The translations under genes and the position numbers were made by a program. DNA of 46,540 bases from assembly GCA_000934665.2 (NCBI GenBank), contig KZ538810.1, positions 1 to 46,540 of the forward strand, written 5' to 3'. Below, in pieces: positions 15,477 to 46,540 of this stretch. The notes below the pieces were generated by a model. That model did no database searches. It saw only the letters and a list, made by a program, of their open reading frames with translations, and was not told the origin of the DNA. This DNA comes from Catajapyx aquilonaris (taxonomy: Eukaryota). Position 1 is the first letter of the stretch; each line of letters opens with the position of its first letter.

Positions 15477-15477
<1 letters not shown>

Positions 15478-21121: not shown

Positions 21122-23329
21122 TCACGAGCAAATGGTTTTTCTCCAGGTATGAACTCGCATGTGAATTTTCAAATTACTTGAATCATGAAAAGTTTTCTGG
21201 CAGACCTCACAAGTAAATGGTTTTTCTCCCGTATGAATATGCATGTGAGTTTTCAAACTATATGAATCTCGAAACTTTTTCTGGCACACCTCACAGGTGA
21301 ACGGTTTCTCTCCTGTATGAATGCGCATGTGAGTTTCAAAAGTACCAGAATGGCGAAATATTTTCTGGCACACCTCACAAGTGAATGGCTTTTCTCCTGT
21401 ATGAGTTTCCATGTGCTTTTTCAAAGTGTGTAAATAATTAAATTTTTTCAGGCACACATCACATTGAAAGGGTTTCTCTCCTGTGTGAATTCGCATGTGA
21501 GTTTTCAAGTAACGAACATGATTAAATTTCTTCAGGCACACCTCACAAGTAAAAGCGTTTTCTCCTGTATGAATTCGCATGTGAGTTTTTAAACTTATTG
21601 AATCATGAAACTTTTTCTTGCACACCTCGCAACTAAATGGTTTTTCTCCTGTGTGAATTCGCATCTGATGAGCTTTCAAATTACTTGAATTACTGAATTT
21701 TTTGTGGCACACGTCACAAGTAAATGGTTTTTCTTCCGAATGAATTCGAATGTGATTTTTCAAACCACATAAATGATGAAATTTTTTCAGGCACACCTCA
21801 CAAGTCAGTGGTTTTTCTCCTGTATGAGTTTTCATGTGCTTTTTCAAATTCTGTAAATTATTAAATTTTTTCAGGCACACGTCACAAGTAAATGCTTTTT
21901 CTTCCGAATGAATTCGAATGTGATTTTTCAAACCAGATAAATGATGAAATTTTTTCAGGCACACCTCACAACTAAATGGTTTTTCTCCTGTATGAATTCG
22001 CATGTGAGATTTTAAACTTCTTGAATCATAGAACTTTTTCTTGCACACCTCACAACGAAATGGTTTTTCTCCTGTATGAATTCGCACGTGAGATTTTAAA
22101 CATCTTGAATCATAGAACTTTTTCTTGCACACCTCACAACTAAATGGTTTTTCTCCTGTATGAATTCGCATGTGAGATTTTAAACTACCTGAATCATAGA
22201 ACTTTTTCTTGCACACCTCACAAATAAATGGTTTTTCTCCTGTGTGAATTCGCATCTGATGAGCTTTCAAATTACTTGAATTACTGAATTTTTTGTGGCA
22301 CACGTCACATGTAAATGGGTTTTCTCCCGTATGAATTAGCATGTGATTTTTCAAATTACGTAAATGACGGAATTTTTTCTGGCACACCTCACAAGTAAAT
22401 AAGTTTTCTCCTGTATGACTTCGTATGTGCCGCTTCAAACCACTTGAATCACGAAATTTTTTCGGGCACACCTTACAAGGAAATGGTTTTTCTCCTGTGT
22501 GAATTCGCATGTGAGTTTTCAAATTACCCAGTTGACTAATTTTTTTTTGGCACACCTCACAAGCGAATGGCTTTTCCCCTGTATGAGTTTGCACGTGCAT
22601 TTTCAACGTAGCTGAATCACGAAACTTTTTCTGGCAGGCCTCACAGGGGAATGGTTTTTCTCCCGTATGCTTTCGCATGTGAGTTTTCAAACTGGATAAA
22701 TTATGAAACTTTTTCTGACACATGTCACAAGTAATTGGTTTGCCTCCTGTATGAATTCGCATGTGATATTTCAAATGAGGTAAACTGCGCCATTTTTTCT
22801 GACACACCTCACAAGTAAAAGGTTTTTCTTCAGAATGAGTTCGCAAGTGAGATTTCAAACAAGGGGAATCACGAAACTTTTTCTGGCAAACGTCACAAGA
22901 AAAAGGTTTTTCTTCTGAATGAATTCGCATGTGAGATTTCAAACAAGGTGAATCACGAAACTTTTTCTGGCATACCTCACAAGTATACGGTTTGTTTATG
23001 GTGTGAACTAGCATGTGAGTCTTCAAACTGTATGAACAACTTAATTTTTTCTGGCACACCTCACAATGAAATGATCTTTCTCGTCGTGTATGACTTTGCC
23101 TGTGATTGTTCAACTGACTTGCACCAGAAAATGTTTTCTGGCATACATCACAAATAAATTGTTTGTCTCCTGCGTGAAATCGCATGTGAGTTTTCAAATT
23201 ATGTGAATCATGAAATTCCTTCTGGCATATTTTACACTCAAAAGACCTTCTTCCATCATATAATACCCTGCTCCTTTCCTCTTGTATCTCTCTAGCTTCT
23301 ACTCCATCTTCAGTTCTCACTTGCACAAC
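21122..23329 (-). CDS. Unit A zinc-finger exon: 25 tandem C2H2 fingers
   Basis: 734-aa ORF of CxxC-x12-HxxxH units with TGEKP linkers. Acceptor TTCCAG|GTT at 23330, phase 0. Splices in frame with 23941..24201 to give ~822 aa. A frameshifted 26th finger follows. Confidence 0.93.
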   Translation of the reverse strand, partial: VVQVRTEDGVEAREIQEERSRVLYDGRRSFECKICQKEFHDSHNLKTHMRFHAGDKQFICDVCQKTFSGASQLNNHRQSHTRRERSFHCEVCQKKLSCSYSLKTHMLVHTINKPYTCEVCQKKFRDSPCLKSHMRIHSEEKPFSCDVCQKKFRDSPCLKSHLRTHSEEKPFTCEVCQKKWRSLPHLKYHMRIHTGGKPITCDMCQKKFHNLSSLKTHMRKHTGEKPFPCEACQKKFRDSATLKMHVQTHTGEKPFACEVCQKKISQLGNLKTHMRIHTGEKPFPCKVCPKKFRDSSGLKRHIRSHTGENLFTCEVCQKKFRHLRNLKNHMLIHTGENPFTCDVCHKKFSNSSNLKAHQMRIHTGEKPFICEVCKKKFYDSGSLKSHMRIHTGEKPFSCEVCKKKFYDSRCLKSHVRIHTGEKPFRCEVCKKKFYDSRSLKSHMRIHTGEKPFSCEVCLKKFHHLSGLKNHIRIHSEEKAFTCDVCLKKFNNLQNLKKHMKTHTGEKPLTCEVCLKKFHHLCGLKNHIRIHSEEKPFTCDVCHKKFSNSSNLKAHQMRIHTGEKPFSCEVCKKKFHDSISLKTHMRIHTGENAFTCEVCLKKFNHVRYLKTHMRIHTGEKPFQCDVCLKKFNYLHTLKKHMETHTGEKPFTCEVCQKIFRHSGTFETHMRIHTGEKPFTCEVCQKKFRDSYSLKTHMHIHTGEKPFTCEVCQKTFHDSSNLKIHMRVHTWRKTICS

Positions 23330-23424
23330 CTGGAATGAGTAATTATATTATATCAATTTTTATTTTGTGGTGTGGAAGGCATGTCTGGATATAAACGATC
23401 AAGAGATTGTCTCACATGTATAAT

Positions 23425-23495
23425 ATTATAATAATAATGGATACCCCGTGATAAGCCTCCTTAGGCTTTTTAGGGGATCATCGTTTAATTGACCG
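23425..23495 (-). mobile_element. 3' fragment of SINE family 1 in the unit A intron
   Basis: ATAATAATGGATACCCCGTGATA..TTAGGGGATCATC is the reverse complement of ~17082..17136. Confidence 0.75.
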
Positions 23496-23940
23496 ACATT
23501 AATCATAGCTGTAGCTCTTGGTAATAGTAACATGGAGCAAAGGAAGCTAAAGGCTGACCAATATAAGAGCTATTAAGTCTGCTTGACCTTGCAAAACTAA
23601 CCATATGGAACCCAAGAACCCAACCAAGTGGCTAGCACAGCCTGTAATATAAATGTAAGTAATATTTCAAGCAATGAAAAATAAAAAGAATATGTAATTT
23701 ATTCTAATGAAGCCGTGTTTGTTCTCCCTTCCTAGAAATTCTTTCACTAATTTATTTATCACGTTTTTAAAATGGACACGATGCTCCCTTTATAACGTCG
23801 ACAACTTTGATGTATCAGGTCAGGCAACCATCTGTCGGATTGCACGCATTGTGTAAGTTCATGAAATAATGGCTGCGGCACACCCTTAGTACGGCTGCAA
23901 CAGGTCTTGCTCATGTTACACGTGTTTGAAGGTGACATAC

Positions 23941-24201
23941 CCCACTAGTCCTTCCTGAACCTCCTGCCAAAGGGTCATCCTCATCTTCTTCCACCTTGGG
24001 AACGGCCACCACCATCTCCTCCTCCTCTACTTCCTCCTTCTTGATCTCGAGGAGAGTGTCTTCCATGAGCGCAGTAGACTCACTGTCCAACCATGGTGGT
24101 GGTGCTTCCTCCTCCTTCACCCGCAGCCTCCAGCTCTCCTCGTCCACTGTGATGTCCTCCTTCACTTCCTCCTCCTTCTTTATCCTCAGGATCAAAGACA
24201 T
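23941..24201 (-). CDS. Unit A acidic N-terminal exon (87 codons)
   Basis: TTGCAG|GGCCATG acceptor and start; MSLILRIKKEEEVKEDITVDEESWRLRVKEE..DPLAGGSGRTSG; donor GGG|GTATGT, phase 0. Confidence 0.85.
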
Positions 24202-24504
24202 GGCCCTGCAATACACAAGGAGTGGAGGTCATGTCATGGTGTCAAGTGTTGCATCCCCAATCATGGTGGGTGAAGAGCAGGAGGGACACTTTCTCTCTGG
24301 GGTGTGGGCCTGGCCCCAGGGGCAGAACTTGTCGGGAATTATTCTTTTTCTAAAGGAGTGACCCCCACCGATGAGGGGCCTGCCCGTCCCATATCCCTTC
24401 CACTCACCCTTCTCCTTCTTCCAACTATTGTTCTGAACCCTCCTTCCTGCCAAACCAGCCAGAGAGGCACACAGATTGAAGGCCACCAACGAAGGCCACT
24501 AGTC

Positions 24505-24660
24505 TAGAGCGGCCATCTTTCATTCCCTCCTCTTCTAATCGTTTCCTTTTCTTATTTATGCAAATTAGGGGTGCGTTCCTACCCCCACACCAGAGTGGGG
24601 GACGGGCTTATGCGCTGTTGCTCTCCTCCTTCAATAACAATCGCTGCTACTCTTCCATAG
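24505..24660 (-). promoter_or_regulatory. Putative promoter/TSS block of unit A
   Basis: GCGGCCATCTT (YY1/Pho-like) and ATGCAAAT octamer at 24558, followed by GGGGTGCGTTCCT. The same block precedes units B, C and E. Candidate exon-1 donor GTGAGT at 24407..24402. Confidence 0.6.
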
Positions 24661-25254: not shown

Positions 25255-25595
25255 GAGGTCTAATCCAGCAGTTGAGCCCACCCGTTGCCAGATTGGGCAC
25301 ACAGGCAAGCATGGACAGTTGTAGGGTAAAGCGGACAGTCTCCCTTTTCTAAATAGCAGCCAAATATTTCACAAAGAAATCCTGTATGGATTCACATCAG
25401 TTTTCAAATCATGGGATTGCAACAGTTTTTTTTTCTTCTGGCACACCTCACATGTCAATGGTTTTTCTCCTGTATGAGTTTTCATGTGCTTTTTCAAATA
25501 ATTATGTGAATTTATTACATTTTTCTGGCCCACCTCACAAGTGAATAAGTTTTCTCCTGTATGAATTCGTATGTGCCTCTTCAAATGACATGAAT
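25255..25595 (-). pseudogene. Unit B remnant: degenerate last zinc fingers plus 3' flank
   Basis: SCHLKRHIRIHTGENLFTCEVGQK..HMKTHTGEKPLTCEVCQ, with a lost Cys and a frameshift. 25255..25400 matches the unit A 3' flank at 20925..21075. Confidence 0.85.
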
Positions 25596-25636
25596 GACCA
25601 AAACATTTTCATTTCATCCTTTCAAGACATGTACTA

Positions 25637-26074
25637 TTAACAGTGGAACATCTGGAAACAATTGCGACCCTTTTGTAGGCACAGGTACGCCTGGCACTTC
25701 TGGCACGATACATACGACTTCCCAGAGCAGTTCCTGCACCGGTTGCGATTTGCATTCCACACTGGCATGTGCCCCACACCATCTTTATCAATGTCCTTCA
25801 CTGGAACAGTTGACATCCGCTGCTTCTTCACACCTTTTCTCTCATTCACTGACGGCCTACCCATCTTCTTTTGCTTGCCAGCCAGGATGAGGCAACTTGA
25901 CACCTCCCACTGGAACTGCCTTAGGGACATGTTCTTTTCTTGCAGTTGGAGGCAGTTCCTATGATATAGCAGCCACGCATTCACCAGGGCCATTGTGACT
26001 GTGTTCTCCAGCCACGGCCGCACCTTCCACAGCCGGTCACGTGCCATCTCTGCTTCTGTTACACAGTAGTTGTC
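25637..26074 (-). mobile_element. piggyBac transposase, C-terminal part (PGBD-like, catalytic core deleted)
   Basis: DRLWKVRPWLE joins directly to TVTMALVNAWLLY..SLRQF, followed by the Cys-rich tail DGVGHMP..RNRCRNC..YVSCQKCQAYLCLQKGRNCFQMFH. Confidence 0.9.
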
Positions 26075-28974
26075 AGTCGACAAGGCGGTCAACAGAGAGG
26101 GGGAGATGTTATTGGATACATGGTCAGTGTGGGGTATGCTGGTGATAAATGGAAGGACGGAGAGCGACAGGGATGGGGCTTTAACGTTCATTGGTCCACA
26201 AGGGAAATCTGTAATTGATTATGCAGTGGTGGACGAGGATGGATGGAGCGAAATCAAAGACATGAAAGTGGGAACGAGGATTGAGTCGGACCATCAGCCT
26301 CTGGAGGTGACAATCAGGGACGGGGGAACAAAGGAAGCGGTGGTACAGGAGACGAGAGATGAGGGAGAAAGATACAGATGGATAGAGGGGAAAGGAGACG
26401 AGTACAGGGAGAGGCTGCGAGAGGGAAACGTGGGAAGGGTACAGGAGGACACAGTCGACGACATGGACATAGGGTTACACAAATGGGTAGAACGGGCAGC
26501 TGTGGGGATAAGATTCAAAAGACGAAAAGAAAAAAAGAGAAGAGCGGATTGGTTTGACAGAGACTGTAAAACTAAAAGGGAAATGGTTTGGAGAAGTCTT
26601 AGGGTGTATAAAAAGGAGGGGAAAGAAAGAGACAGACTTGAGTATGTTAAAAGAAAGAAAGAGTATGGCAAATTATGCATGGAGAAGAAAAATGAACACG
26701 TGAATAAAATGGTGGACGATTGGAAAAAAGTAAAAACAGAGGGGGAAATGTGGGAAAAATTGAGGGGAAAGACGAAGTATAGGGAATCAGCACCTAAGTC
26801 AATACCGGAAAGGGAATGGAGGGATCATTTTGTTGGGTTACTGGGGGGGCATAGGGAAAAAAGGGTAGTAAAGTTCGGGGAAGGTGGGGAGGAAGAGGCA
26901 GGCCAGCACTGGGATAGGGAAATATCGAAGAAGGAGATTGCAGATTGCATCAGGAGGCTAAAAAGGAGGAAGGCTCCTGGAACAGATGGATTACCAAACG
27001 AATTTCTAAGAGAAGGGGGGGAAGTGATGGTGGAGGAGATATGGAACTTGTTCCGAAAGGTGTGGGAAAAAGAGATGATACCGGAGCAGTGGAAGGAGGC
27101 ACAAATCTATCCTATTCATAAGAGTGGTTCAAGGGAGGAAGTAAAAAATTACAGGGGGGTGGCACTGCTAAACGGGGTTTACAAGATTTGGGCCATGATT
27201 ATAGAGGCGAGGATAAGGGTATGGGCAGAAAGGGAGGGCATATTACATGAGGGACAGGCTGGTTTTCGGAGAGGGAGGAGCACAAGTGACAATATATTTA
27301 TATTAAATGCACTGGTACAGCACAGGCTGGGGAGGAAGAGGGGGAAAATGTACGCCATGTTCGTAGACCTCAAATCCGCATTTGATAAAGTGAATCGCGT
27401 AAAGCTAATGACGAAATTATGGCACCTTGGAGTAAAAGGGAAAGTGTGGAGGCTGCTGTGCAAAATGTATGAAGAAAGCGTTAATACAATGGGAACAGGC
27501 GGGGAGAGATTTTGGACAACGAATGGAGTGAGGCAGGGGTGCCCACTGAGCCCATTGCTATTCATAATGTATGTAAATGATTGGTTGAACATGTTGCAGG
27601 AGGAAAATTCAGGGGGGGTCAGGCTAGGAAGGGAAAAGGTGTGGGGGCTGATGTTTGCGGACGATATGGTGGTGGTGGCAGAAGAAAGAGAACAGTTAAG
27701 TGTTATGGTGAAACAGATAGAAGCCTATTTGAAGAAAAACGATTTAGAGTTGAATGTGGGAAAGACGAAAATCATGGTATTTAGGAATGGAGGGAAAAGG
27801 TCCAAAAGGGACGGATGGTTTTGGAAAGGGGAAGAGATAGAAGTGGTCAACAAATACAAATACTTAGGATATTGGTTTACAACAAAGGGGGGGATTCAGG
27901 AACATATCAAGGCACAAAGACAGAAAGCATGGAGAGGGTTGCACAGGGTCAGGAGGATATGCAGGCAACAAAAAATTGAACAGTGGGGTTTGGTAAAGGC
28001 CTTATATGGAAGCATGGTGAGAACAATAATACTGCAGGGAGCCGAGGTGTGGGCGTGGAAGGTGGGACGAGCGATGGAGTGTGTGCAGTTGGGGTTCCTC
28101 AAGAGGTGGCTCGGAGTGGCCCAGAATACTCCGGGGTACATTGTGCTGACAGAGACAGGGATGATGGAGGTGGAAGTGGCGGCATTAGAAAGGGCAGTTA
28201 GGTGGATCATGAAGATGGAAAGGTTAGGGGAAGACAGACTGTTGCGAAGGATATGGGATGAGATGAAGAAGGAAAGGGAGGGAGGTGGTAAAAATGGCTG
28301 GTGGGAAGACGTGAGGAAGAAGGAATAAGAATGGGGGGTGGAGGATGACGAGGAGTGGCAAAGGCAAACTTGGGAAGAACGATGGGACTCGTGGGGGAAG
28401 GAACTGAGGGAGAGGATGATCAAGGAGAGGGAGGAGAGAATTGCCAACACGACCAACTGGCCCGACTATAAATTTGTAATGATAGAGAGAGAAGAAGACC
28501 AGTATCTGAACAGAGAAAATATAAAATTTTTGAAGGTGTTGGCGAAACTAAGATGTGGGACACTGTGCAGGGCTAGCTGGTCGTGGTTGTCGGAAACGGA
28601 GAGGAACTGTTTATTGTGTGGGGAGGGGGTTGAGAATATGGGGCATATTGTGAGGGACTGCAGGGTAATGATGGAGGAGAGGAGGAAATGGATACCGGCG
28701 GTGGAGGAGATGGAGAATGAAGAATTGTATAGCTTTCTAAAGAATGTAAAAAAAAGGGGTGGTCTGTGCAGGTATCTGTACGGGATGGTAAAAAAGAAAA
28801 GGGATGCAATTTTGGAGAGACAGGAGGAGGGAGGGGAGTGAAAATGGAATTGTGTAAATGTAAATGTATATGTATAATATGTAAACGTGTGAAGAAAGAG
28901 GTGAGTCGGCCAAGCGGCATGTGCTGCCGGCCGACAACGTATAAATAAAGCAAAACAAAACAACAAAACAAACA
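26075..28974 (+). mobile_element. 5'-truncated LINE (partial APE endonuclease, RT, CCHC), one in-frame stop
   Basis: Motifs SVIDY, SDHQP, KAPGTDG, NYRGVALL, QAGFR, FVDLKSAFDKV, GVRQGCPLSPLLF, FADD, YKYLG and CLLC..H..DC. TAA at 28326..28328 with the same frame continuing to 28841. 14-bp TSD ACAC(A/T)GTAGTTGTC at 26061..26074 and 28975..28988. Clade not assigned. Confidence 0.97.
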
Positions 28975-28988
28975 ACACTGTAGTTGTC

Positions 28989-29603
28989 CGCAAAATGGAT
29001 CGAAGTCAAAACCTTTTCGAATCTGTTGCATGGCATTACGCTGTAGATGGGCTCGTATCCTAATCCATTCTCCCAATAGCTTCGTATACTTGGCATTTGA
29101 ACTAAACCCATTCGGAAATAAATTCCCAAAACAGATTCCAGCTCATCTTTGTTGATGTTCAGAGGCGAACTTTTCTCTTGCACACTGTACAGGTTTGTCT
29201 GTTGCACCACATCATCCAGCATCTCATCAGTAACATATGCCTTAAAATATTGATATGGTGTCAGAAGCTGGTCAGGTGGGGGATCTTCGATGCCAAGAAA
29301 AGGAGCATCTGGGCGCTGGAAAACACCTTTCTCCCACTCAAAATGTACAGGCCTCTCCACTCGTATCTGCGCATGTGCATGTGGCACGTTGTCTTCAGGA
29401 TCATCATTGTCGTCCTCACTCACAGTCTCTTCCTCTTCACCATCTCCATCTTGAAGCGCCTCATTCCGTAAGATAGTCGCAGCCTGTGTTACTTCATCCT
29501 CCTCCTCTTCGTTGTCAGATGACAGGCCCTCCAACTCACTGCAGTTGCCGTCCAGGATGTCCGCAATGTCATCAATAAGCAAAGGTTTCCTGTGGCGACT
29601 CAT
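28989..29603 (-). mobile_element. piggyBac transposase, N-terminal part
   Basis: Acidic N-terminus, then TPYQYF..QTNLYS..ELESVLGIYFRMGLVQMPSIRSYW..MPCNRFEKVLTSIHFADN. In frame with 25637..26074 once the LINE and one TSD copy are removed (350 aa). Preceded by TTTTAG|ATG. Confidence 0.92.
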
Positions 29604-30607: not shown

Positions 30608-30853
30608 CCCACTAGTACTTCCAGAACCAACAGCTAAAGGGTCATCTTCAACCTCCCTAGTCATGGCCACCATCTCCTCCTCCTCCTGTGCTTCCTCCTT
30701 CTTGATCTCACGAATGGTGTCTTCCATGAGAGTGGAGCCACCATCAAAGCAAGAAGGGGTCTCCTCCTTCACCCTTAGCCTCCAAGTCTCCTCATCCACT
30801 GTGATGTCCTCCTCCTTCACTTCCTCCTTCTTTATCCTCACGACCAAAGACAT
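30608..30853 (-). pseudogene. Unit B acidic exon (82 codons, acceptor mutated)
   Basis: MSLVVRIKKEEVKEEDITVDEETWRLRVKEE..DPLAVGSGSTSG with intact donor GGG|GTATGT. The acceptor reads TTGCGG instead of TTGCAG. Confidence 0.75.
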
Positions 30854-31068: not shown

Positions 31069-31272
31069 CTATTGTTCCTCCCCTGCCACCTTCTTGATCT
31101 CGAGGAGAGTGTCTTGCATGAGCGTAGTAGACTCACTGTCCACCCGGTCCACCCATTCCGGGGTCTCCTCCTCTTTCATATTGGACTGCCAGGTCTCCTC
31201 CACTGTGACCATCCCACCATCTTCTTCCTCCTTCACTTCCCCTTCCTTCTTCATCTTCAGGATCAAAGACAT
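31069..31272 (-). pseudogene. Extra truncated acidic exon of unit B
   Basis: MSLILKMKKEGEVKEE..MQDTLLEIKK runs into exon-1-type sequence (AACAATAGTTGGAAGAAG, as at ~24420) and stops. Confidence 0.7.
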
Positions 31273-31317
31273 GGCCCTGCAAAACACAATGAGTGGAGGC
31301 CATGCAAAGGACACCAG

Positions 31318-31470
31318 TCGGCGGCGGCCATCTTTAATTTCTCTTTTCTTTCTTTTTTTTTATGCAAATGAGGGGTGCGTTCCTGTCGCCACACTAGAGT
31401 GAAGGACGGGCTAATCAGCTATTCCTTCAACGATCGCCGCTACTGGTGAAGAACTGCTATGCGCTAATAG
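31318..31470 (-). promoter_or_regulatory. Putative promoter block of unit B
   Basis: GGCGGCCATCTT, T-tract, ATGCAAAT at 31362 and GGGGTGCGTTCCTGTCGCC. Confidence 0.55.
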
Positions 31471-32062: not shown

Positions 32063-32917
32063 TTAGCGGTTAGCAGAACCCTGCCCACCATTGTGAATTC
32101 GCATGTGACTTTTCCAATTTCTCGCATCACTGAAGTTTTTCTGGCAGACCTCACAAGTAAATGGTTTTTCTCCTGCATGAATTTGCATGTGCGTTTTCAA
32201 ATTACTTGACTGGGTGAATTTTTTTTGACACACCTCACAAGTAAATGGTTTGTCTCCTGTATGAATTAGCATGTGAGTGTTCAAATTACTTGACTGGCTG
32301 AATTGTTTTTGACACACCTCGCAAGTAAATGGTTTATCCCCTGTGTGAATTAGCATGTGTTTTTTCAAATCACATAGGTGAATAAAATTTTTCTGACACA
32401 CCTTACAGCTATATGGTTTTTCTCCTGTATGAATGTGCATGTGAGTTTTCAAATTACTTGACTGGGTGAATTTTTTTTGACAGACCTCACAAGTAAATGG
32501 TTTATCCCCTGTGTGAATTAGCATGTGAGTGTTCAAATTACTTGACTGGGTGAATTTTTTTTGACACACCTCGCAAGTAAATGGTTTATCCCCTGTGTGA
32601 ATTAGCATGTGTTTTTTCAAATCACATAGGCGAATAATATTTTTCTGACACACCTTACAGCTATATGGTTTTTCTCCTGTATGAATTCGCATGTGAGTTT
32701 CCAAAGTCCTTGAACGAGTAAATTTTTTCTGGCAAATCTGGCACCAATTTCTTTCACTATGGATATTTATCATATGAATATTCAAATCATCCTGAGTACC
32801 AAATAATTTCTGGCATGTTGTGCACTCAAGTGGATTTCTTCCATCACATATTCCCCAGCTCCTTTCCTCTTGGATCCCATTCTCCTCTTTTCTGCCTTCA
32901 GTTCTCCCTTGCACAAC
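32063..32917 (-). CDS. Unit C zinc-finger exon: 9 C2H2 fingers
   Basis: 283-aa ORF. Acceptor TTCCAG|GTT at 32918, phase 0; joins 35029..35451 to give ~425 aa. Fingers 3-5 are duplicated as fingers 6-8. Confidence 0.88.
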   Translation of the reverse strand, partial: VVQGRTEGRKEENGIQEERSWGICDGRNPLECTTCQKLFGTQDDLNIHMINIHSERNWCQICQKKFTRSRTLETHMRIHTGEKPYSCKVCQKNIIRLCDLKKHMLIHTGDKPFTCEVCQKKFTQSSNLNTHMLIHTGDKPFTCEVCQKKFTQSSNLKTHMHIHTGEKPYSCKVCQKNFIHLCDLKKHMLIHTGDKPFTCEVCQKQFSQSSNLNTHMLIHTGDKPFTCEVCQKKFTQSSNLKTHMQIHAGEKPFTCEVCQKNFSDARNWKSHMRIHNGGQGSANR

Positions 32918-33040
32918 CTGGAAATTGAATTACAGTATCATCAAATTTACATTTTGGGGTACGGAAAGCATATACTTGTGTCGCCGTATCCTCTCTTTCT
33001 GCTTATAATATGTCCGTCAACACTCATCGTCTGAGTAGTA

Positions 33041-35028: not shown

Positions 35029-35451
35029 CTCACTAGTCCTTCCAACTCCCAAAGGGTCTCCTTCATCTTCAACCACCCCAGACATGTCCACCACCATCTC
35101 CTCCTCCGCTTCCTCTTTCTTGACCTCACGAAGCCTGTCTTCCATGAGCGTAGAATCATTGCCCAACCATGGTGGTGGTTCCTTCTTCACCCACAACATC
35201 CGCGTCTCCTCTGTTGTGATGTCATCCTCATCGTCATCTCCTTCCTCCTCCTTCCCTTCCTCCTTCTTGATCTCGAGGAGAGTGTCTTCCATGAGCGCAG
35301 TAGAGTCTTTGTCCAACCATGGCGGTGGTGCTTCCTCCTCCTCCTTCACCCGCAGCCTCCAACTCTCCTCGTCCACTGTGATGTCCTCCTCCTCGTCCTC
35401 TTCCTCCTCCTTCACTTCCCCTTCCTTCTTTACCTTCAGGATCAAAGACAT
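35029..35451 (-). CDS. Unit C acidic N-terminal exon (141 codons, module duplicated)
   Basis: TTGCAG|GACCATG; two copies of DIT..W/LxVK[E/K]E..PPPWL..ST.LMED.L.E[I/V]KKEE; donor GAG|GTATGT, phase 0. Confidence 0.85.
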
Positions 35452-35689: not shown

Positions 35690-35840
35690 GGAGGCCATCT
35701 TTTCTCTTGATTTTTCTTTTTTCTTTTTTTATGCAAATGAGGGTGCGTTCCTGTCGCCACACAAGAGTGAAGGAAGGGCTTATCCGCTACTCCCGCAACA
35801 GCCGCTACTGTTGAAGAACTGCTATGCGCTAATAGCAGTG
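35690..35840 (-). promoter_or_regulatory. Putative promoter block of unit C
   Basis: GGCCATCTT, T-tract, ATGCAAAT at 35731 and GGGTGCGTTCCTGTCGCC. Confidence 0.6.
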
Positions 35841-36355: not shown

Positions 36356-37105
36356 TTATTGCAACACCTTGAACCAAGAGTTGTAAGTCAAATTACTTGA
36401 CTGGGTGAATTTTTTTTGACACACCTCACAAGTAAATGGTTTATCCCCTGTATGAATGTACACGTGCTTTTTCAAATCACCTAGCAGAATAAAATTTTTC
36501 TGACACACTCTACAGCTATGTGGTTTTTCTCCTGTATGAATGTGCATGTGAGTTTTTAAATTATTTGAACCAAGAAATTTTTTCTGGCATACTTCACAGG
36601 AAAATGGCCTTTCTCCGGTATGAGTTCGCCAATGATTTTTCAAATTACCCGAATGGCGAAATATTTTCTGACACACCTCACAAGTAAATGGTTTTTCTCC
36701 CGTATGAATTCGCATGTGCCTTTCCAAATCACCTGCTAGACCAAATTTTTTCTGGCACATCTCACAAATGTATGGTTTTTCTCCCGTATGAATTCGCTTG
36801 TGCTTTTTCAAGTCCCTTAGATAATAAAATGTTTTCCGGCACACTTCACAAAATGGTTTCTCACCTGTGTGAATTAGCATATGAGTTTTCAAACGATGTG
36901 AATCATAAAATTCTATCTGGCAAACTTGGCAGGAATTTCTTTCGCTATGAGTTAGAATGTGAATATTCAAATCATCCTGGCTACCCAATAATTTCTGGCA
37001 TATTTGACACTCAAATGATGAACTTCTTCCCCCACACATTCCCCTGTTCCGTTCCTCTTGGCTCCCATTCTCTTCTACTCGGCCTTCAGTTTTCATTTTC
37101 ACACC
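36356..37105 (-). pseudogene. Unit D zinc-finger exon: 7 complete fingers plus 1 truncated (open frame, but no promoter or start in the unit)
   Basis: Acceptor TTCCAG|GGT at 37106. The eighth finger is cut at ~36389 and fused to 3'-flank sequence that matches 31590..31944. Confidence 0.7.
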
Positions 37106-37423
37106 CTGGAATGTAAAATTGCAGTACATAAAATTTCACTTTACATTATGTTCATTGTACTCCCTCTTGTTCCACCCACCCATCATATCCACCTACACTG
37201 TTATATGGCAAGGTCTAGACCTTGGTTATATGGTGCTTAAAAGGGGCAAAAAAAAAAAGTACTGCGAATACCAATCATATTTTCAGTCTTTGAATGTAAT
37301 TGACTATTTTGCATCTCTAATCCTCTGTAGCAGCCTGGCGCTGACTGAGAAAATTTGCAAATAAATATTCACCAGCAAGTGTCACAATCACCCCCATTCG
37401 GGGCAATTTCAACAGCATTACTA

Positions 37424-37747
37424 GGGGCAAGATAACTCATGCGTTTGGGGAGGTGGCTTGCGTCATTGGCAACCATAACTAGCCTGCCCCCTGCTGAGTT
37501 TTTGTATGAAATTTAGAACGATTGGTGGGGAAATATCCCCCCCCCCCCNCCCCCCCCCCCCCTGCTTGGTTTAATACCAATTGCGTTAGTGTAAACAAAC
37601 TCATCTCATTCTTGAGGTTTTTGAACATAACGCCCACTTATTCCTTTGAAATCGAATCCTGATTGGTCGACCGGTAGGCGACGGGGTTAATTATTTGGTT
37701 GCCAAGGTCACAAGCCACCTCCCAAAACGCATGAGTTATCTTGCCCC
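37424..37747. mobile_element. MITE with ~50-bp TIRs (PIF/Harbinger-like)
   Basis: CTA|GGGGCAAGATAACTCATGCGTTTGGGGAGGTGGCTTG ... CAAGCCACCTCCCAAAACGCATGAGTTATCTTGCCCC|TTA. Confidence 0.85.
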
Positions 37748-37748
37748 T

Positions 37749-38050: not shown

Positions 38051-38099
38051 TTCATATTCCTGTAGAACCAGCCCATACGCGTTGGGGGCTGAGAATACA

Positions 38100-38225
38100 A
38101 CACTGGCCCACCCAAGACGAAGTCAGAGATGACCCAAAACTCTGCAAGAAGGGGGGCACAATGAAGGGGAGAATCCCGGGCTGGGATCGAACGCGGGACC
38201 TTAACATCCGTGGGCCCATACGTTT
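38100..38225 (-). mobile_element. SINE family 2 fragment
   Basis: GGGATCGAACGCGGGACCTTAACATCCGTGGGCCCATACGTT matches ~15910..15952. Confidence 0.75.
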
Positions 38226-38240
38226 CAGCAGATTACATAC

Positions 38241-38400
38241 CCCACTTATCATTCCTAAACCAACAGCCAAAGGGTCATCATCAACCTCCCCAGACATGTC
38301 CACCTCCTCCTCCTCCTCTGCCTCCTCCTCGTTGATCTCACGAAGCGTGTCTTCTGGGAGCGTACAGTCCTCATCAAAGCAAGAAGGGGCCTCCTCCTTC
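38241..38400 (-). pseudogene. Unit D acidic exon, 5'-truncated
   Basis: KEEAPSCFDEDCTLPEDTLREINEEE..DDDPLAVGLGMISG|GTATGT. The upstream half is replaced at ~38401 by sequence paralogous to 44499 onward. Confidence 0.8.
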
Positions 38401-38402
38401 AA

Positions 38403-39521
38403 CTGCCAAAAAATGTCACTAATAATAATTCATCTCTTCTCCCTGCCCTAAGGGGACAGCATTCAAAACAGCTGAGGAAACACTCCGCCTTACAGCAGAT
38501 TAGTTTAGTTAACAAGATGGGTTGCGGACTCATATTTGCCTGTGGCTTTGTGCATTACACACTTAATTGCAAAAGTCAATGGCATGCAATATTTTGAGTC
38601 ACAAATTTTTTCCTGAAACTAATATTTCAGGATATAAATGATAGAAGTTGGTTGCTCAGGGGTGACACGTGCATACTCATCAATTTTATAAGAATTTTAT
38701 TTTTATTGATGACATTTTAATTTTCAAACATGAACATTCCACCTATTTTGAATGCACATTTTGTACAAAATGTGCATGCCAGGGGAAACACTCTCTAATA
38801 TTTCATGGTGTTTTTGGAAGCGGCTTGGAGTGATTGTGCACATTTTCCGTGAGGTAATTTTTAAAAAGTCGGATTCCCAATGACAATGGGGCGTAGCTTC
38901 CACTGAGTCTGCTTTCATTGCCCTGCAGAAAAAAGCGTCAGGATGGGTGGGAAGCCAGCCGCAGATGGCCTCTTTCACTTCTTCGATGTTGCTGAAGTGC
39001 CGGCAGGCCAGGTGCTTCTTTTATTGGCACCAAATGATGGTCTTAACAATGGTCTACCATATCTTTGGACAAACAAAAAAAAGCCCTGGCTTGTCAGTGG
39101 TCAAGACCTCAGCGACTCGAGGAAATGTCTGGTAAGCCAATGACGGGCGGTCGTTTTCATTTGCCCTCGTATTTAAGACCTGTAGTTGGAAAGTATTCAT
39201 TCAAGATCACTTCATGGACAGGGTATACGGTATGGCATTGCCTGATGGCTTTTTAAAATGCAGAAAACATGGTACTGCAGGTGCAGAATATCATTTTGAT
39301 TCGATAAAAATCAATGAATAATACAGTGTCAGATGTGTCTATGGACAAAACAGATTTGCTGATGAAGGAAATAAAAATAGGCGCAAAAACAAGGCAAAAT
39401 TACATCACATTTTAAGAAAATGAGATACGGGACCCTATTATTTCTGGAACCAACTGCTCTAAAGGGTTCATCTCCATCGTCAATGACTTTGGGCTAATTT
39501 GCACATTTCACCACCACAATG
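38403..39521. repeat. Duplicated 3' flank shared by units E and F
   Basis: Colinear with 44499..46018 (CATCTCTTCTCCCTGCCCTAAGGGGACAGC onward), apart from divergent or indel segments. Confidence 0.9.
38913..39171 (-). mobile_element. Internally deleted mariner remnant
   Basis: Minus strand starts TA|CGAGGGCAAATGAAAA and encodes KKHLACRHFSNIEEVKEAICGWLPTHPDAFFCRAMK, resembling the mariner transposase C-terminus. Confidence 0.75.
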
Positions 39522-40781
39522 TCACTCTCTTGTATGAATTCGCATGTGCCTTTTCAAATTAGGCGCACGGCTAAAGTTTTTCTGGCAGACCTCACATTGA
39601 AATAGCTTCGCTCCTGTATGAATACGCATCATGTGGGTTTTCAAACTGTATGAATCACGGAATTTTTTCTGGCACACCTCACAAATACATGGTTCACCTC
39701 CTGTATGAATTACCATGTGACTTTTCAAATTCTTTGCTGTACGAAATTTTTTACGGCAGACCTGACAAGTGAATGGTTTTTCTCCTGCATGAATGTGTAT
39801 GTGAGTTTTCAAATTGTATGAATCTCGAAACTTTTTCTGGCACACCTCACAAGTGAATGGGTTTCCTCCTGTATGAATATGCATGTGACTTTTCAAATCA
39901 TTTGATTTACGAAATTTTTTACGGCAGACCTGACAAGTAAATGGTTTTTCTCCTGTATGAATTAGCATGTGAGATTTCAAATTACGTGAATCACAAAGTT
40001 TTTTCTGGCAGACCTTACAAGTGAATCGTTTTTCTCCCGTATGAATTTGCATGTGAATTTTGAAGTTACTTGAATGAGTAAATTTTTTCTGGCACACCTC
40101 ACAAGTGAACGGTTTTTCTCCTGTATGAATTTGCATGTGAGTTTTCAAATGACCTGGCTGAATAAATTTTTTCTGGCACACTTCACAAGTATATGGTTTC
40201 TCTCCTGTATGAATTTGCATGTGAGATTTCAAAGTACGTGAATCACAAAGTTTTTTCTGGCAGACCTCACAAGTGAATGGTTTTTCTCCCGTATGAATTC
40301 GCATGTGAATTTTCAAGTTACTTGGATGAGTAAATTTTTTCTGGCACATCTCACAAGTGAATTGTTTTTCTCTCGTATGAATTCGCATATGAATTTTCAA
40401 GTTACTTGGATGAGTAAATTTTTTCTGGCAGACCTCACAAGTGAATAGTTTTTCTCCCGTATGAATGTGCATGTGCCTCTTCAAATGACATGATTCACGA
40501 AATTTTTTCTGGCACACCTCACAAGTATATGGTTTCTCTCCTGTATGAATTCGCATGTGAGTTTTCAAGGTCCTTGAACGAGTAAATTTTTTCTGGCAAA
40601 TCTGGCACCAATTTCTTTCACTATGGATATTTATCATATGAATATTCAAATCATCCTGCGTATCAAATAATTTCTGGCATGTTGCGCACTCAAATGGATT
40701 TTTTCCATCACATATTCCCCAGCTCCTTTCCTCTTGGATCCCATTCTCCTCTTTTCCGCCTTCAGTTCTCCCTTGCACAAC
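39522..40781 (-). CDS. Unit E zinc-finger exon: 14 C2H2 fingers
   Basis: 418-aa ORF. Acceptor TTCCAG|GTT at 40782, phase 0; joins 43408..43680 to give ~510 aa. Confidence 0.92.
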   Translation of the reverse strand, partial: VVQGRTEGGKEENGIQEERSWGICDGKNPFECATCQKLFDTQDDLNIHMINIHSERNWCQICQKKFTRSRTLKTHMRIHTGEKPYTCEVCQKKFRESCHLKRHMHIHTGEKLFTCEVCQKKFTHPSNLKIHMRIHTREKQFTCEMCQKKFTHPSNLKIHMRIHTGEKPFTCEVCQKKLCDSRTLKSHMQIHTGEKPYTCEVCQKKFIQPGHLKTHMQIHTGEKPFTCEVCQKKFTHSSNFKIHMQIHTGEKRFTCKVCQKKLCDSRNLKSHMLIHTGEKPFTCQVCRKKFRKSNDLKSHMHIHTGGNPFTCEVCQKKFRDSYNLKTHIHIHAGEKPFTCQVCRKKFRTAKNLKSHMVIHTGGEPCICEVCQKKFRDSYSLKTHMMRIHTGAKLFQCEVCQKNFSRAPNLKRHMRIHTRE

Positions 40782-41784
40782 CTGGAAATTGAATTACAGT
40801 ACATCAAATTTACATTTTGAGGTACGGAAAGCATATACTCGTGTATACGGTGTAGTGTACGGTATAGTGTATATGTCCGTCAACACTCATCGTCTGAGTA
40901 GTGCAGGGGCGTTAGGAAAGTCTTTACACTTTTTTTTGGCCAAAAGTACAGGGTCCTTACAGGTCAGCAGATGGGCACACATAATCGATAGAATCCTCCT
41001 GGAGCGGTGGGTCTTATTTGATAGCCTCAGAAATAAGATTTTCCAGCAGGAGAGAACTAACAGACACTGATTCCATGTGATAAAATAATATGTCCAACCC
41101 CCAATCGAGGTTGGGACTTCGGAGGTGCCCAGAAGGCTGTGGTATCACCAGTCTTTGAAGGAGTAATCATAATATTACGTGGTACTAAATTTCGTGAAAT
41201 CTCAGGGTTCCATGAAACATATTAGACAAAACGTGCAACTTGACTACACTTCAGCCAGAAAATATTTTTCACTCTTAGGTGTGTATGAAGAGAAAAATGA
41301 CCCTTATATGATTAGCTATGTATTGCCAGAGCTGACATGAATTGATGATGACACTGCACATTAATTTTAGAAAGAATTGACAAATGGTGACAGTTACTTG
41401 ACTTTATTTTACTAACACCATGTACGAGTTATTCACTTCATGATTGCATCATGCACTGTATAATATCCCTGCTGTTAAATCGAGTACAAAATAAGGTACA
41501 ATACTGTACAGAGTCTATCACTTCTTGCAGCCAGATTTGCGTCCCCTCTTTCCTTTACTGGTTCCAGCACCATCTCTGGCTAGTGCTAGCCATGTTTCCA
41601 AAGTCATACTTTTTATTAAGCCTCTCCCTTATCAGAAGTCATTTTATTAATCTCTTCCGGTTCTCCAATGCCTTCCTCTCTACCTTTCTCTCTCTCTCTC
41701 TCTCTCTCTCCCCCAATAAGTTGGGGGTTGCCAATGGAAAGGATCGAGAAGCACTGCCCCGTATACCCTCTTCAAAGAATACTC

Positions 41785-42394: not shown

Positions 42395-42470
<76 letters not shown>

Positions 42471-43281
42471 CCATTGGGATTTACCATATCCTTTAGGGGG
42501 ATGGATTACCACCATCGGAAATTGGAGCCATATAAGAAGATCTTATTTAATTACTCCAGGGTAGGTAGGAGGGGATGTGCAAAGTGCAAGTGCAATGTCT
42601 CTAACGGTCATTTTGTGAACTCCCCCGGGTGGCTTAGTCTATCGGAAATTGCCACCCGAAATGAAGCCAGAGATGGCCCAACTCTGCCCGGATAAAGGTG
42701 GGGACCCCGGGTGGGGATCGAACCCGGGACCTTAATATTAATATTAATAATAATATTAATATCGTTACCGCTGCGCCACTTCACCTCCCCACTGAGGGGG
42801 ATATTATTTTGAGAAGGCGCTTCGTTATTATCACACTATCGTCACTTTCCAGTATGAGTCACGATGCATGGAGTTACTGAATGATCGGGAAGGAGTCCGG
42901 TACATGCTCTTGTCTGCCAATTTAATATAAGGTCCACATTGAATGTAATCCACTCCCAATCAATCGCTACCTGTAAACAGTGGCAACGACAGAAAGAACG
43001 CTAAGCACTCTCCACATGGCGATGTCCGAACACACCCAGTTGCCAGGTAACGCCAAAGCCGTTGTTTACACTTGTTATATGCTATTATGCACGGTACTGT
43101 ACCGAATTTCAAGAAAACCGGCTAGACCTTGGAAAGTGTCCCTTGTGAGTTCGAGAGGTCATAACTTTTGACCTTGTGGGCATCTGTCTAAATTGTTTGC
43201 ATTTTCTTTAATAACTTATATTATTGTGACAAGTTTCATTCAAAAACTCCACGGACAACACGTACTGTACACTTCCCTTGT
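41785..43281. mobile_element. Foldback element in the unit E intron with nested hairpin and SINE
   Basis: 41785..42318 pairs with 42961..43281. The left arm carries an extra self-complementary segment at ~41968..42174, and a SINE sits in the spacer. Confidence 0.8.
42402..42791 (-). mobile_element. tRNA-derived SINE (family 2) with (TAA)n tail
   Basis: B-box GGTTCGATCC on the minus strand at ~42716..42725; (TTA)n at 42396..42468; TSD CTGAGGGGGATATTATT at 42385..42401 and 42792..42808. Confidence 0.88.
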
Positions 43282-43407
43282 CAGCTTACTTGATAAAATA
43301 GTCAACATCGTGGGATGTTTGGGGGGGGGGGGGGNGACCATTTACTCCACCAAGTTTGGGGGTCTGATTTGGATATGGAGATGTGACAATTTCAGCAGGT
43401 GACTTAC

Positions 43408-43680
43408 CCCACTAGTCCTTCCTGAGCCAACTGCCAAAGGGTCGTCTTCATCTTCTTCTACCTTGGGAATGTCCACCACCATCTCCTCCTCCTCTCCTTC
43501 TTCCTTCTTGATCTCGAGGAGAGTGTCTTGCATGAGAGTAGAATCCAGCCATGGTGGTGGTGCTTCCTCCTCCTCCTTCACCCTGAGCCTCCAACTCTCC
43601 TCATCCACTGTGATGTCCTCCTCCTCCTCTTCCTCCTCCTTCACTTCCCTTTCCTTCTTTATCCTCAGGATCAAAGACAT
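43408..43680 (-). CDS. Unit E acidic N-terminal exon (91 codons)
   Basis: TTGCAG|GACCATG; MSLILRIKKEREVKEE..WRLRVKEE..PPPWLD..DPLAVGSGRTSG; donor GGG|GTAAGT, phase 0. Confidence 0.87.
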
Positions 43681-43921
43681 GGTCCTGCAAACACAAAGAG
43701 TGGAGGTCATTCAATCATGTCAATGAGTATGTCACACAAGTTGAAGAGGAGGGAGGGACACTTCCTCTCTGTGACTGTGTGGGCAAAGGAAGGCGAACCA
43801 GACGGGGGCACCCAACCCGAGGGTTTCCACAATCCCTCCGACCAGCTGAGGAATCAACTCACCTCACGCTCACTGCACAATCGAAGGGAATCGACGACAA
43901 TTAATGGTCAGGCGGCCAGGG

Positions 43922-44075
43922 TCAGGCGGCCATCTTTCTTTTCTTCTTCTTTTTCTTTTTCTTTTAATGCAAATTAGGGGTGCGTTCCTGTCGCCGCACA
44001 GGGGTGGAAGGACGGGCTTATCCGCTATCCCTTCCCATTTCAACAATCGCCGCTACTGGTGCAGAACTGCTACTC
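43922..44075 (-). promoter_or_regulatory. Putative promoter block of unit E
   Basis: GGCGGCCATCTT, pyrimidine tract, ATGCAAAT at 43967 and GGGGTGCGTTCCTGTCGCC. Candidate exon-1 donor GAG|GTGAGT at 43862. Confidence 0.6.
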
Positions 44076-44515
44076 CCTCCAACAACGCTATTCACATTAT
44101 TATTATTATTATTATCAACTACTCTTCTGCTTGTCTGCACGATGCTGTATGTAGAAGTTCTCTCGTGATGATTTAAGCATTATTGGATAAGACTGGAACA
44201 TAATATTCAGCAGATTGTACATATACCCCACTATTCCCTCGCAGCTACTGGTTAAAGCACTGGTACTCCCCTTCTAAATAGCTAAAAAAAATAATCACAA
44301 ATTCTGTAATTTATCGTCTGCCGCATTGTACGTGTGAAAGTGCTCATTGCGTGACAATTTCAGTGCCATTGGATACAGTTGGAGCAGAATATGGATTTAT
44401 TTTTCGACCAAAATTTTGCAAGTACGAGAGAGTCGCTTTGAGGATTAATTTCGAATTCCTCATTGCATTTTCACTGTCAGATTGTTTGTGAGGAAAATCT
44501 GCCAAAAAGGGTCAC

Positions 44516-44575
<60 letters not shown>
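44516..44575. repeat. (TAA)20 microsatellite
   Basis: The paralogous site at 38420..38428 has only 3 units. Confidence 0.95.
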
Positions 44576-44576
<1 letters not shown>

Positions 44577-45325
44577 TCATCTCTTCTCCCTGCCCTAAGG
44601 GGACAGCAGTCAAAACAGCTGAGGAAACACTCCGCTTTACAGCAGATTTGTTCTTTAGTTACCAAGATGTGTTGCGGACTCATATTTGCCTGTGGCTTTG
44701 TGCATTACACACTTAATTGCAGAAGTCAATGGCATGCAATATTTTGAGTCACAAATTTTTTCCTGAAACTAATATTTCACCCTATCAATGATAGAAGTTG
44801 GTTGCTCAGGGGCGACACGTGCATACTCATCAATTTTATTCGAATTTGATTTTTATGAAAATTTTAATTTTCAAACATGAACATTCTACCTATTTTGAAC
44901 ACACCCTTTTTTTTTTGTACAAAATGTGCATGCACATTTTGTACATAAAAAAATAGGTGCGTGGGCATTATCCACACACCATTTTCAGATGTCACAAATG
45001 TGCTGGAGTTTGGGACAAGAAACATGGTTGTTAGTATTATTCCTGTTTAGGATAATTTTATTACGTCTGGTGGTCATGCCAGTTTTTCACTGAACTGAGG
45101 TAAGAATATCAATTATTATCGAAAGTCAGTATGGCTGGAACTGGAGCTAAAGCACCAACATGATATTATGGAATGACACCTTTTACGAGTACGTTAAAAA
45201 AACTTGCTTGCAAACTAAGGAAAGTACTCTGAAAATATTTCACCGTGTTTTAGGAAGTGGTAAGGTAAGGAAGTGAAAGGTAAAATCTTCCTCTATTTTT
45301 AGACATACTGTATAGTCAACCATAC

Positions 45326-45376
45326 ACCCTACAATACACCACCCTACAATACACCACCCTACAATACACCACCCTA
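45326..45376. repeat. 15-bp tandem repeat (ACCCTACAATACACC) x ~3.4
   Basis: Read directly from the sequence. Confidence 0.9.
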
Positions 45377-45384
45377 ATTTTTCC

Positions 45385-45674
45385 ATGCCCCTGCAGAAAA
45401 AAGCGTCAGGATGGGTGGGAAGCCAGCAGCTGATGGCCTATTTCACTTCTTCAATGTTGCTGAAGTGCTGGCCAGCCAGGTGCTTCTTTTATTGGCACCA
45501 AATCGACGCCTAGGAATATAATTCTTAGGCGTCGAAATGACGGTCTTAACCATGGTCTACCATATCTTTGGACAAATAAAAAAAAGCCCTGGCTTGTCAG
45601 TTGTCAAGACCTCAGCGACTCGAGGAAATGTCTGGGAAGCCAATGACGGGCGGTCTTTTTCCTTTGCCCTCGTA
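45385..45674 (-). mobile_element. Mariner remnant, duplicate of 38913..39171
   Basis: Near-identical to the first copy, plus a 31-bp hairpin insertion at 45504..45534. Confidence 0.75.
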
Positions 45675-46018
45675 TTTAAGGCCTATAGATGGAAAGTATT
45701 CCTTCAAGATCACTTCATGGACAGGGCATAGCATTGTCTGATGGCTTTTTAAAATGCAGAAAACATGGTACTGCAGGTGCAGAATATCATTTTTATTCGA
45801 TAGAAATCAATGAATAATACAGTGTCAGATGTGTGTATGGACAAAGCAGAGATTTGCTGATAAAGGAAATAAAATTGGTGCAAAAACAAGGCAAAATTAC
45901 ATCGCATTTTAAGAAAATGAGATACGGGACCATATTATTTCTGGAACCAACTGCTCTAAAGGGGTCATCTCCATCGTCAATGACTTTGGGCTAATTGGCA
46001 AATTTCACCACCCCAATG

Positions 46019-46540
46019 TCACTCGCTTGTATGAATTCGCATGTGCCTTTTCAAATTAGGCGCACGACGAAAGTTTTTCTGGCAGACCTCACATTGAAAT
46101 AGCTTCGCTCCTGTATGAATATTCATATGGGTTTTCAAACTGTATGAATCACGGAGTATTTTCTGGCACACCTCACAAGTGTATGGTTTTTCTCCAGTAT
46201 GAATGTGCATGTGAGTTTTCAAACTGTGTGAATCTCGAAACTTTTTCTGGCACATTTCACAAGTAAATGGTTTTTCTCCTGTATGAATTCGCATGTGACA
46301 TTTCAACTGATTTGATTTACGAAATTTTTTACGGCAGACCTGACAAGTAAATGGTTTTTCTCCCGTATGAATTAGCATGTGAGATTTCAAATTACGTGAA
46401 TCGCTAAGTTTTTTCTGGCAAACCTCACAAGTGAATGGTTTTTCTCCCGTATGAATTTGCATGTGAATTTTCAAATTACTTGCCTGATGAAATTTTTTCT
46501 GGCACACCTCACAAGTGAATGGTTTTTCTCCTGTATGAAT
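46019..46540 (-). CDS. Unit F zinc-finger exon, 3' part (last 6 C2H2 fingers; continues beyond the window)
   Basis: Open frame from the window edge (IHTGEKPFTCEVCQ..) to RIHTSE*; paralogous to the 3' half of unit E. Confidence 0.9.
   Translation of the reverse strand: MHTGEKPFTCEVCQKKFHQASNLKIHMQIHTGEKPFTCEVCQKKLSDSRNLKSHMLIHTGEKPFTCQVCRKKFRKSNQLKCHMRIHTGEKPFTCEMCQKKFRDSHSLKTHMHIHTGEKPYTCEVCQKILRDSYSLKTHMNIHTGAKLFQCEVCQKNFRRAPNLKRHMRIHTSE

Follow-up and report, generated by a model that had tools for sequence, protein, structure and literature searches.

What is the short acidic exon that stands ahead of the finger arrays in a zinc-finger (ZNF) gene cluster of Catajapyx aquilonaris, and what might it do for the proteins that carry it? 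The window, meaning the whole stretch of DNA that was analysed, comprises 46,540 nucleotides (positions 1 to 46,540 of the forward strand of contig KZ538810.1, GenBank assembly GCA_000934665.2). An earlier sequence-only reading of it had described six head-to-tail units of C2H2 fingers, and these are indeed present, all on the minus strand, between 21122 and 46540; we number them U1 to U6 by increasing coordinate (Table 1). The best explanation of the cluster is a birth-and-death tandem array of poly-C2H2 zinc-finger transcription-factor genes in an arthropod-like animal, and the best explanation of the acidic exon, called the head below, is a lineage-restricted effector module. Its conserved content consists of four matches to the SUMO consensus psi-K-x-E, two aromatic residues and a helix-prone LMEDTLLEIKKEE.

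Stop-to-stop translation in the standard code shows that the minus strand has five long frames of finger arrays (21122-23347, 32063-32929, 36356-37135, 39522-40793 and 46019-46540), with short Glu/Lys-rich frames starting MSLIL... interspersed among them. Pfam recognises the arrays as zf-C2H2 (E=2.7e-110 for the U1 array). U1, U3 and U5 are complete units, U2 and U4 are decayed, and U6 is cut by the window end. DNA identity between units is 72-91% by self-BLAST, so the duplications are not very recent. The sequence-only reading had counted six acidic exons, and six copies do exist (U1, U2a, U2b, U3, U4 and U5); they are not distributed one per unit, however, because U2 has two and the head of U6 falls outside the window.

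The three exon junctions that had been proposed, 23941/23329, 35029/32917 and 43408/40781, lie exactly where they had been placed. Each is a GT..AG pair with a GTATGT or GTAAGT donor and a pyrimidine-rich CAG acceptor, and each would join the predicted exons in phase 0 (for example ...GRTSG/VVQVRTEDG, the slash marking the junction). A fourth GT..AG phase-0 junction, 38241/37105, is found in the truncated unit U4, and we infer that the head exon is spliced to the finger exon in U1, U3, U4 and U5. In these four units an effector-type exon would thus precede a finger array encoded by one exon, a layout that is KRAB-ZNF-like, as had been noted, and equally like that of FiNZ-ZNF genes.

An AG acceptor precedes each head ATG by 4 bases. 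Alignment of the upstream regions also reveals a conserved block, ...GGAACGCACCCCT[AC]ATTTGCAT followed by an A-rich spacer and AAGATGGCC, and a good donor, AGG/GTGAGT, occurs ~100-120 bases past AAGATGGCC. The composite pattern ATTTGCAT-N(10-40)-AAGATGGCC has four matches against 0 expected, all on the minus strand and upstream of heads, and a second cassette pattern has three matches, again against 0 expected. Since a conserved cassette, a donor and an acceptor before the ATG are all in place, the genes are probably three-exon genes with a non-coding first exon. An intact gene would then begin with the promoter-side cassette and exon 1, putatively non-coding, followed by exon 2 for the acidic head (87-141 residues) and exon 3 for a short linker and 9-25 fingers.

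The cassette, found upstream of four heads, is thus made of an octamer-like ATTTGCAT, an A-rich spacer and AAGATGGCC. A very short upstream frame starts at its ATG (MAALD*, MASYDD* or MAA*, the asterisk being a stop; 22 codons in the rearranged U2). We take AAGATGGC to resemble start-site motifs of the YY1/Pho or TISU type; a literature search on the promoter-side motif returned nothing usable.

The six head copies align across ~90 columns. Their net charge runs from -11 to -33 (-17 in U1, -21 in U5), their acidic fraction is 0.28-0.38, and Cys is absent from U1, U3, U5 and U2a and occurs once in U2b and once in U4. The ratio of non-synonymous to synonymous substitution rates (dN/dS) is 0.15-0.57 over all 15 pairs of copies, with 0.15 for U1 versus U5, the best-kept copies; the peptide is therefore under purifying selection. 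W24 is invariant, a second aromatic residue (W or F) is found near position 36, and LMEDTLLEIKKEE forms the helix-prone stretch. An AlphaFold2 model of the head, built from the six-row alignment, has a mean predicted local distance difference test score (pLDDT) of 59.2 and a predicted template modelling score (pTM) of 0.24, with only two helices, at 21-29 and 40-64. We read the head from this model as a largely disordered module with helical propensity rather than a folded domain.

No catalogued domain accounts for the head. The sequence-only reading had taken it for none of KRAB, ZAD, BTB or SCAN, and this holds: Pfam gives no relevant match at E<=10 for any of the six copies (KRAB PF01352, ZAD PF07776, SCAN PF02023 and BTB PF00651 being absent) and none at E<=1 for four acidic frames, while ZAD is also excluded because the head lacks its four Cys. 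A profile of the six heads found 0 relatives at E<=0.001 among 1,835,955,588 representative proteins. A word-based search of longer proteins gave 0 of 1462 candidates at E<=0.001 for the head. In metagenome contigs a pattern derived from the profile had 175 matches, of which 0 were confirmed, and a degenerate EESWRLRVKEE pattern had 0. A literature search with three head peptides gave no match. When the head was compared by BLASTP with the acidic heads of two other ZNFs, neither the prawn protein (E=0.13) nor the moth protein (E=2.2) gave a significant match. A protein atlas gave weak leads for the U1 head (0.87 to an unnamed chordate cluster, with KRAB as best named family at 0.76) and no usable named match for the U5 head. 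The term lineage-specific, as applied to this head, is a provisional one, resting on negative searches of collections that contain no close relative of Catajapyx aquilonaris.

What the head does hold is SUMO consensus, counted as [VILMF]-K-x-E. The motif occurs three times in U1 (plus a VKED), four times in U2b, three in U2a, six in U3, once in U4 and four times in U5. Shuffled sequences average 0.06-0.78 motifs across the six copies (0.3-0.8 for the full-length copies, which hold 3-6), and the observed count is reached by 0-34 of 5000 shuffles for the five full-length copies and by 318 of 5000 for the U4 fragment. Together the copies contain 21 psi-K-x-E motifs, against 0-11 for ten permuted or substituted patterns and 0 for psi-R-x-E. 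Four sites stand at fixed positions in the alignment. All four are intact in U1, U3, U5 and U2b, and loss is confined to U2a (IKKV) and U4 (INEE), both of them decayed copies. Density is ~4 per 100 residues, and the motifs sit in acidic runs, as in the negatively-charged-residue (NDSM) type.

This arrangement fits published descriptions of SUMO sites. Ubc9 modifies consensus sites directly, and such sites are located mostly in disordered regions, with K and E/D as the main conserved residues (Ninova 2023, PMC10363806); downstream acidic residues define the NDSM variant, which an acidic context favours (PMC3395311). In the head, psi-K-x-E lies in an acidic region with K and E conserved across copies, and the low confidence of the model (pLDDT 59) fits the location of consensus sites in disordered regions (PMC10363806). 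A candidate SUMO-interacting motif (SIM) after EEEE, MVVAV in U1 and MVVDI in U5, was also considered and rejected: it is absent from U3, U2b and U4 and fits 0 of the 3 SIM patterns given in PMC3395311.

We put at about even the chance that the head is a SUMO-dependent effector, most likely a repressive one. The genes would be expressed and spliced as predicted and their fingers would dock the protein on DNA, whatever the targets may be. Ubc9 would then SUMOylate the head at several lysines, and the multi-SUMO head would recruit corepressors that carry SIMs, such as a SetDB1/Eggless-type methyltransferase or complexes of the Mi-2/HDAC type, leading to local silencing. The head would thereby take the role that SUMOylated KAP1 has for KRAB-ZNFs, where SETDB1 is recruited through SUMO/SIM contacts (PMC7915335; PMC9522831). 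For Drosophila, SUMO is reported as a link between target recognition and SetDB1-type silencing, and it is connected with heterochromatin formation guided by PIWI-interacting RNAs and with the TIF1 homologue Bonus.

Motifs of this kind are not peculiar to the present family. From the 120 listed matches to the U5 finger exon we used the 114 with >=40 residues before the first finger, which are unrelated proteins from fish, reptile, mammal, insect and mollusc. Their pre-finger regions contain 305 psi-K-x-E motifs where shuffles predict 54.6, a 5.6-fold excess, and 54 of the 114 have three or more; permuted control patterns occur 20-126 times in the same regions, psi-R-x-E 29 times. Animal poly-ZNFs thus commonly have a region rich in SUMO consensus before their fingers, and the head can be seen as a dense, lineage-restricted and exon-delimited version of this general theme, the density being 0.93 per 100 residues in the 114 regions against ~4 in the head. 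The prawn and moth poly-ZNFs mentioned above have repeated acidic heads with psi-K-x-E of their own (IKQE, VKGE and IKSE; VKEE and VKDE), and the prawn head has an ITVD...VK.E stretch in common with this one, within the non-significant BLASTP alignment (E=0.13). A wider proposal, that of a 'SUMO antenna', would have the DNA-bound ZNF multi-SUMOylated on its own exon-encoded head and recruiting SIM-bearing silencing complexes without a KAP1-like adaptor; this may be an ancestral general effector logic of animal poly-ZNF expansions, of which KRAB, FiNZ and this head would be lineage-specific elaborations. We consider this extension doubtful.

The fingers are variable where they would be expected to touch bases. 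Over 56 canonical fingers, entropy is 2.6-3.2 bits at helix positions -2, -1, +2, +3 and +6 and <=0.9 bits at the structural Cys and His and at Phe-10, Leu+4, Lys-8 and Lys+5; variability is fairly high too at finger positions 2 and 21 (2.2-2.3 bits). Arrays also grow internally, as in U3, where fingers 3-5 and 6-8 are a recent triplet duplication with 96-97% nucleotide identity. Near-identical finger pairs (88-96%) were seen in U1 too. Searching with the U5 finger exon returned only generic poly-ZNF proteins from many phyla, the best of the listed matches being 54% identical, and gave no pointer to the taxon.

Among known systems the closest analogue in architecture is the FiNZ-ZNF family, the likeness being one of gene plan and description. 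According to Wells et al. (2023, PMC10547256), the coding part of FiNZ-ZNF genes is split over two exons, the first for a short Glu-rich N-terminal module unlike known domains and the second for a tandem finger array; they form large tandem clusters, and their fingers vary most at base-contacting residues. The cluster described here likewise has a Glu-rich head on its own exon and then a finger-array exon. FiNZ, however, is given there as 28 residues long and restricted to cyprinids, whereas this head has 87-141 residues and belongs to an arthropod-like genome, the named relatives of a long interspersed nuclear element (LINE) inside the cluster all being arthropod. FiNZ-ZNFs also have knock-down evidence for repression of long terminal repeat elements and co-immunoprecipitation with TRIM33 (PMC11603059), whereas the present family is known from sequence alone.

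With the KRAB-ZNFs of tetrapods and their partner KAP1/TRIM28 the cluster has in common an effector exon, then a single finger-array exon, in tandem birth-and-death clusters, and a likely end-point in both would be SUMO-dependent recruitment of a histone H3 lysine 9 (H3K9) methyltransferase. It differs in having no KRAB domain, and in where SUMO would be attached: KRAB is a folded TRIM28-binding box and the corepressor is the SUMO acceptor, whereas here the acceptor motifs are on the ZNF protein itself. The ZAD-ZNFs of insects (PF07776) are likewise an arthropod lineage-specific poly-ZNF expansion in tandem clusters with an N-terminal accessory module, but ZAD is a dimerising fold that coordinates zinc with four Cys, in contrast to a head with 0-1 Cys, no Pfam match and a low-confidence model. 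Clusters of SUMO consensus (psi-K-x-E or NDSM) in disordered regions of transcription factors resemble the head in their repeated [IVLM]-K-x-E followed by acidic residues, in the low confidence with which the region is modelled and in the conservation of K and E; in this family the cluster is instead a compact, exon-delimited cassette common to all its genes, and modification is predicted.

Several points weigh against a SUMO-dependent repressive head. The case for SUMOylation is a prediction based on a motif of four residues within a sequence rich in K and E; psi-K-x-E is a frequent motif, and many sites that fit the consensus never carry the modification. The conservation argument is supported by six copies only, two of them decayed. 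Comparison of 14 reciprocal-best finger pairs gives a dN/dS of 1.02 for the four contact codons, with 13 non-synonymous changes and 3 synonymous ones, and of 0.36 elsewhere, a contrast that is not significant (Fisher p=0.35) and that comes from pairs whose choice is biased towards similar fingers. Nothing ties the fingers to transposons, which the sequence-only reading had named as possible targets, and all that can be learned from the LINE and the piggyBac-like element in U2 is that insertions can take place in the cluster. A hallmark of activation domains is moreover the acidic run with W, L and M embedded in it, and the head has such features: a net charge of -11 to -33, the invariant W24 with a second aromatic retained, the helix-prone LMEDTLLEI, and a low-confidence model compatible with disorder. 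The head could then be an acidic transactivation domain whose aromatic and leucine residues bind coactivators from within acidic disorder, the SUMO motifs, if used, only dampening its activity. We find this unlikely, since lysines are frequent in the head and specifically within psi-K-x-E (21 against 0-11 for the permuted patterns), which acid-blob activators do not need, and since the closest architectural analogues, KRAB and FiNZ, repress (PMC10547256). The family might also organise chromatin or heterochromatin in the manner of many insect ZAD-ZNFs, aside from any transposon targeting, with the head as a partner-docking or self-association module. The dipteran ZAD-ZNFs offer a precedent, having diverse heterochromatin roles and not following the copy number of transposons (Wells 2023, PMC10547256), and the missing tie between fingers and transposons agrees with it. 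This is a less likely account still: the head lacks a Cys quartet and any Pfam match to ZAD, BTB or SCAN, and its low-confidence model and strong negative charge (-17 in U1, -21 in U5) argue against a compact dimerising fold.

Homology to the vertebrate effector domains, with the head being a KRAB-A or FiNZ box diverged past ordinary recognition, has little probability in our estimate. We aligned the six heads by hhalign with 13 KRAB-A boxes taken from the listed matches of the U5 finger-exon search. PWLDSESTALMEDTLL was placed on the KRAB core with a score of 13.1 (P=0.067), which only 9 of 200 column-shuffled alignments reached; the atlas also names KRAB as best family for the U1 head, if at the weak score of 0.76, and FiNZ is likewise Glu-rich and on its own exon (PMC10547256). 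Against this, the hhalign probability is 0.8%, Pfam KRAB is absent at E<=10 in all six copies, the atlas has no usable named match for U5, and no protein reached E<=0.001 in the profile search of a library rich in vertebrate and fish ZNFs, while FiNZ is reported in that paper as a 28-residue module restricted to cyprinids. KRAB homology was rejected, as an unsupported lead. Finally, the cluster could consist of decaying pseudogenes, or reading frames alone could have suggested an exon pairing that is not real; in either case it would yield no functional protein. Two of the five units that can be judged (U2 and U4) are clearly broken, and the pairing of exons was read from the DNA alone, which counts equally against the SUMO-dependent effector. 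We nevertheless regard this as the least probable account, for long open frames of 9-25 fingers persist in three units together with an ATG and undamaged splice signals, and both the heads (dN/dS 0.15-0.57) and the finger scaffold (0.36) fall well short of a ratio of 1. The proposal of the sequence-only reading, a lineage-specific repressor family, is partly supported: the head is constrained, uncatalogued and set on a FiNZ/KRAB-like gene plan.

Table 1. Features of the zinc-finger cluster in the window (coordinates are positions in the window)
Feature	Coordinates	Strand	Description
U1 finger exon	21122..23329	minus	29-residue linker, 25 C2H2 fingers and stop; open frame, Pfam match, CAG acceptor before 23329
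U1 acidic head exon	23941..24205	minus	Coding sequence (CDS) 24201-23941, 87 codons from the ATG at 24201; GTATGT follows 23941 as donor; AG at 24207-24206 is the acceptor
U1 promoter-side cassette and putative non-coding exon 1	24408..24579	minus	GGAACGCACCCCTAATTTGCAT ... AAGATGGCC; ends AGG/GTGAGT at 24408; cassette itself 24511-24579
U2 finger-exon 3′ remnant, pseudogene	25256..25610	minus	10 stops in best frame; self-BLAST and finger-array matches
piggyBac-like transposase remains replacing most of the U2 finger exon	25637..29603	minus	Pfam DDE_Tnp_1_7, E=6.9e-19
U2b acidic head copy	30608..30853	minus	Open frame of 82 codons with a GTATGT donor; AG of the upstream acceptor replaced by GG; without finger exon
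U2a acidic head copy	31072..31383	minus	CDS part 31272-31072, 67 codons then stop; fused to exon 1 end; includes promoter cassette 31326-31383
U3 finger exon	32063..32917	minus	9 fingers
U3 acidic head CDS	35029..35451	minus	141 codons; core motif duplicated internally; 6 psi-K-x-E motifs
U3 promoter-side cassette	35693..35738	minus	Pattern search
U4 finger exon	36356..37105	minus	7 fingers and a truncated eighth
U4 partial acidic head	38241..38408	minus	56 codons; 5′-truncated; lacks both ATG and promoter cassette; INEE in place of SUMO site 4
U5 finger exon	39522..40781	minus	14 fingers
U5 acidic head CDS	43408..43680	minus	91 codons; GTAAGT donor
U5 promoter-side cassette	43928..43988	minus	Pattern searches
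U6 finger exon, 3′ part	46019..46540	minus	At least 6 fingers, cut by window end; 85% identity to U5 region

Damage in the cluster is concentrated in U2 and U4. The U4 head lacks its first third. The finger remnant of U2 (25256-25610) is 79.5% identical to 20926-21281 by self-BLAST and adjoins the piggyBac-like element, of which the part at 25637-26218 was recognised by eye only and has no Pfam match. That element is in turn split by a plus-strand LINE with a reverse transcriptase open reading frame at 26070-28328 (RVT_1, E=2.5e-38) and a 3′ end near 28975. Named relatives of the LINE among the matches listed are all arthropod, including those from a centipede, ants, parasitoid wasps, a bee and a pseudoscorpion; the best-scoring match is 37% identical, and identity does not exceed ~42% among the matches listed. 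A second, inverted copy of the LINE 3′ end (28363-28975) lies at 5665-6284, is 84.6% identical and looks like a 5′-truncated insertion. In the left flank, outside the cluster, there are two pairs of long inverted repeats with 78-90% identity (14667-15640 versus 17674-18425, and 18731-19339 versus 19755-20344), which may be transposon ends or a palindromic duplication. The assembly has a gap of 174 N at 6453-6626 and single N at 37549 and at 43335, the latter in a poly-C run directly downstream of the U5 head exon.

Little is known of the means by which the many non-KRAB poly-zinc-finger families of animals act on chromatin, and even for FiNZ the mechanism is described as open by its own authors (PMC10547256). 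Here an 87-residue head has as its only conserved features four SUMO-acceptor motifs and two aromatic positions, and the strong excess of psi-K-x-E ahead of the fingers in other animals suggests that one shared effector principle may lie behind independent ZNF expansions. Should that reading be wrong, the cluster would still be a clean case of birth-and-death evolution in an arthropod ZNF subfamily, complete with nested transposon damage.

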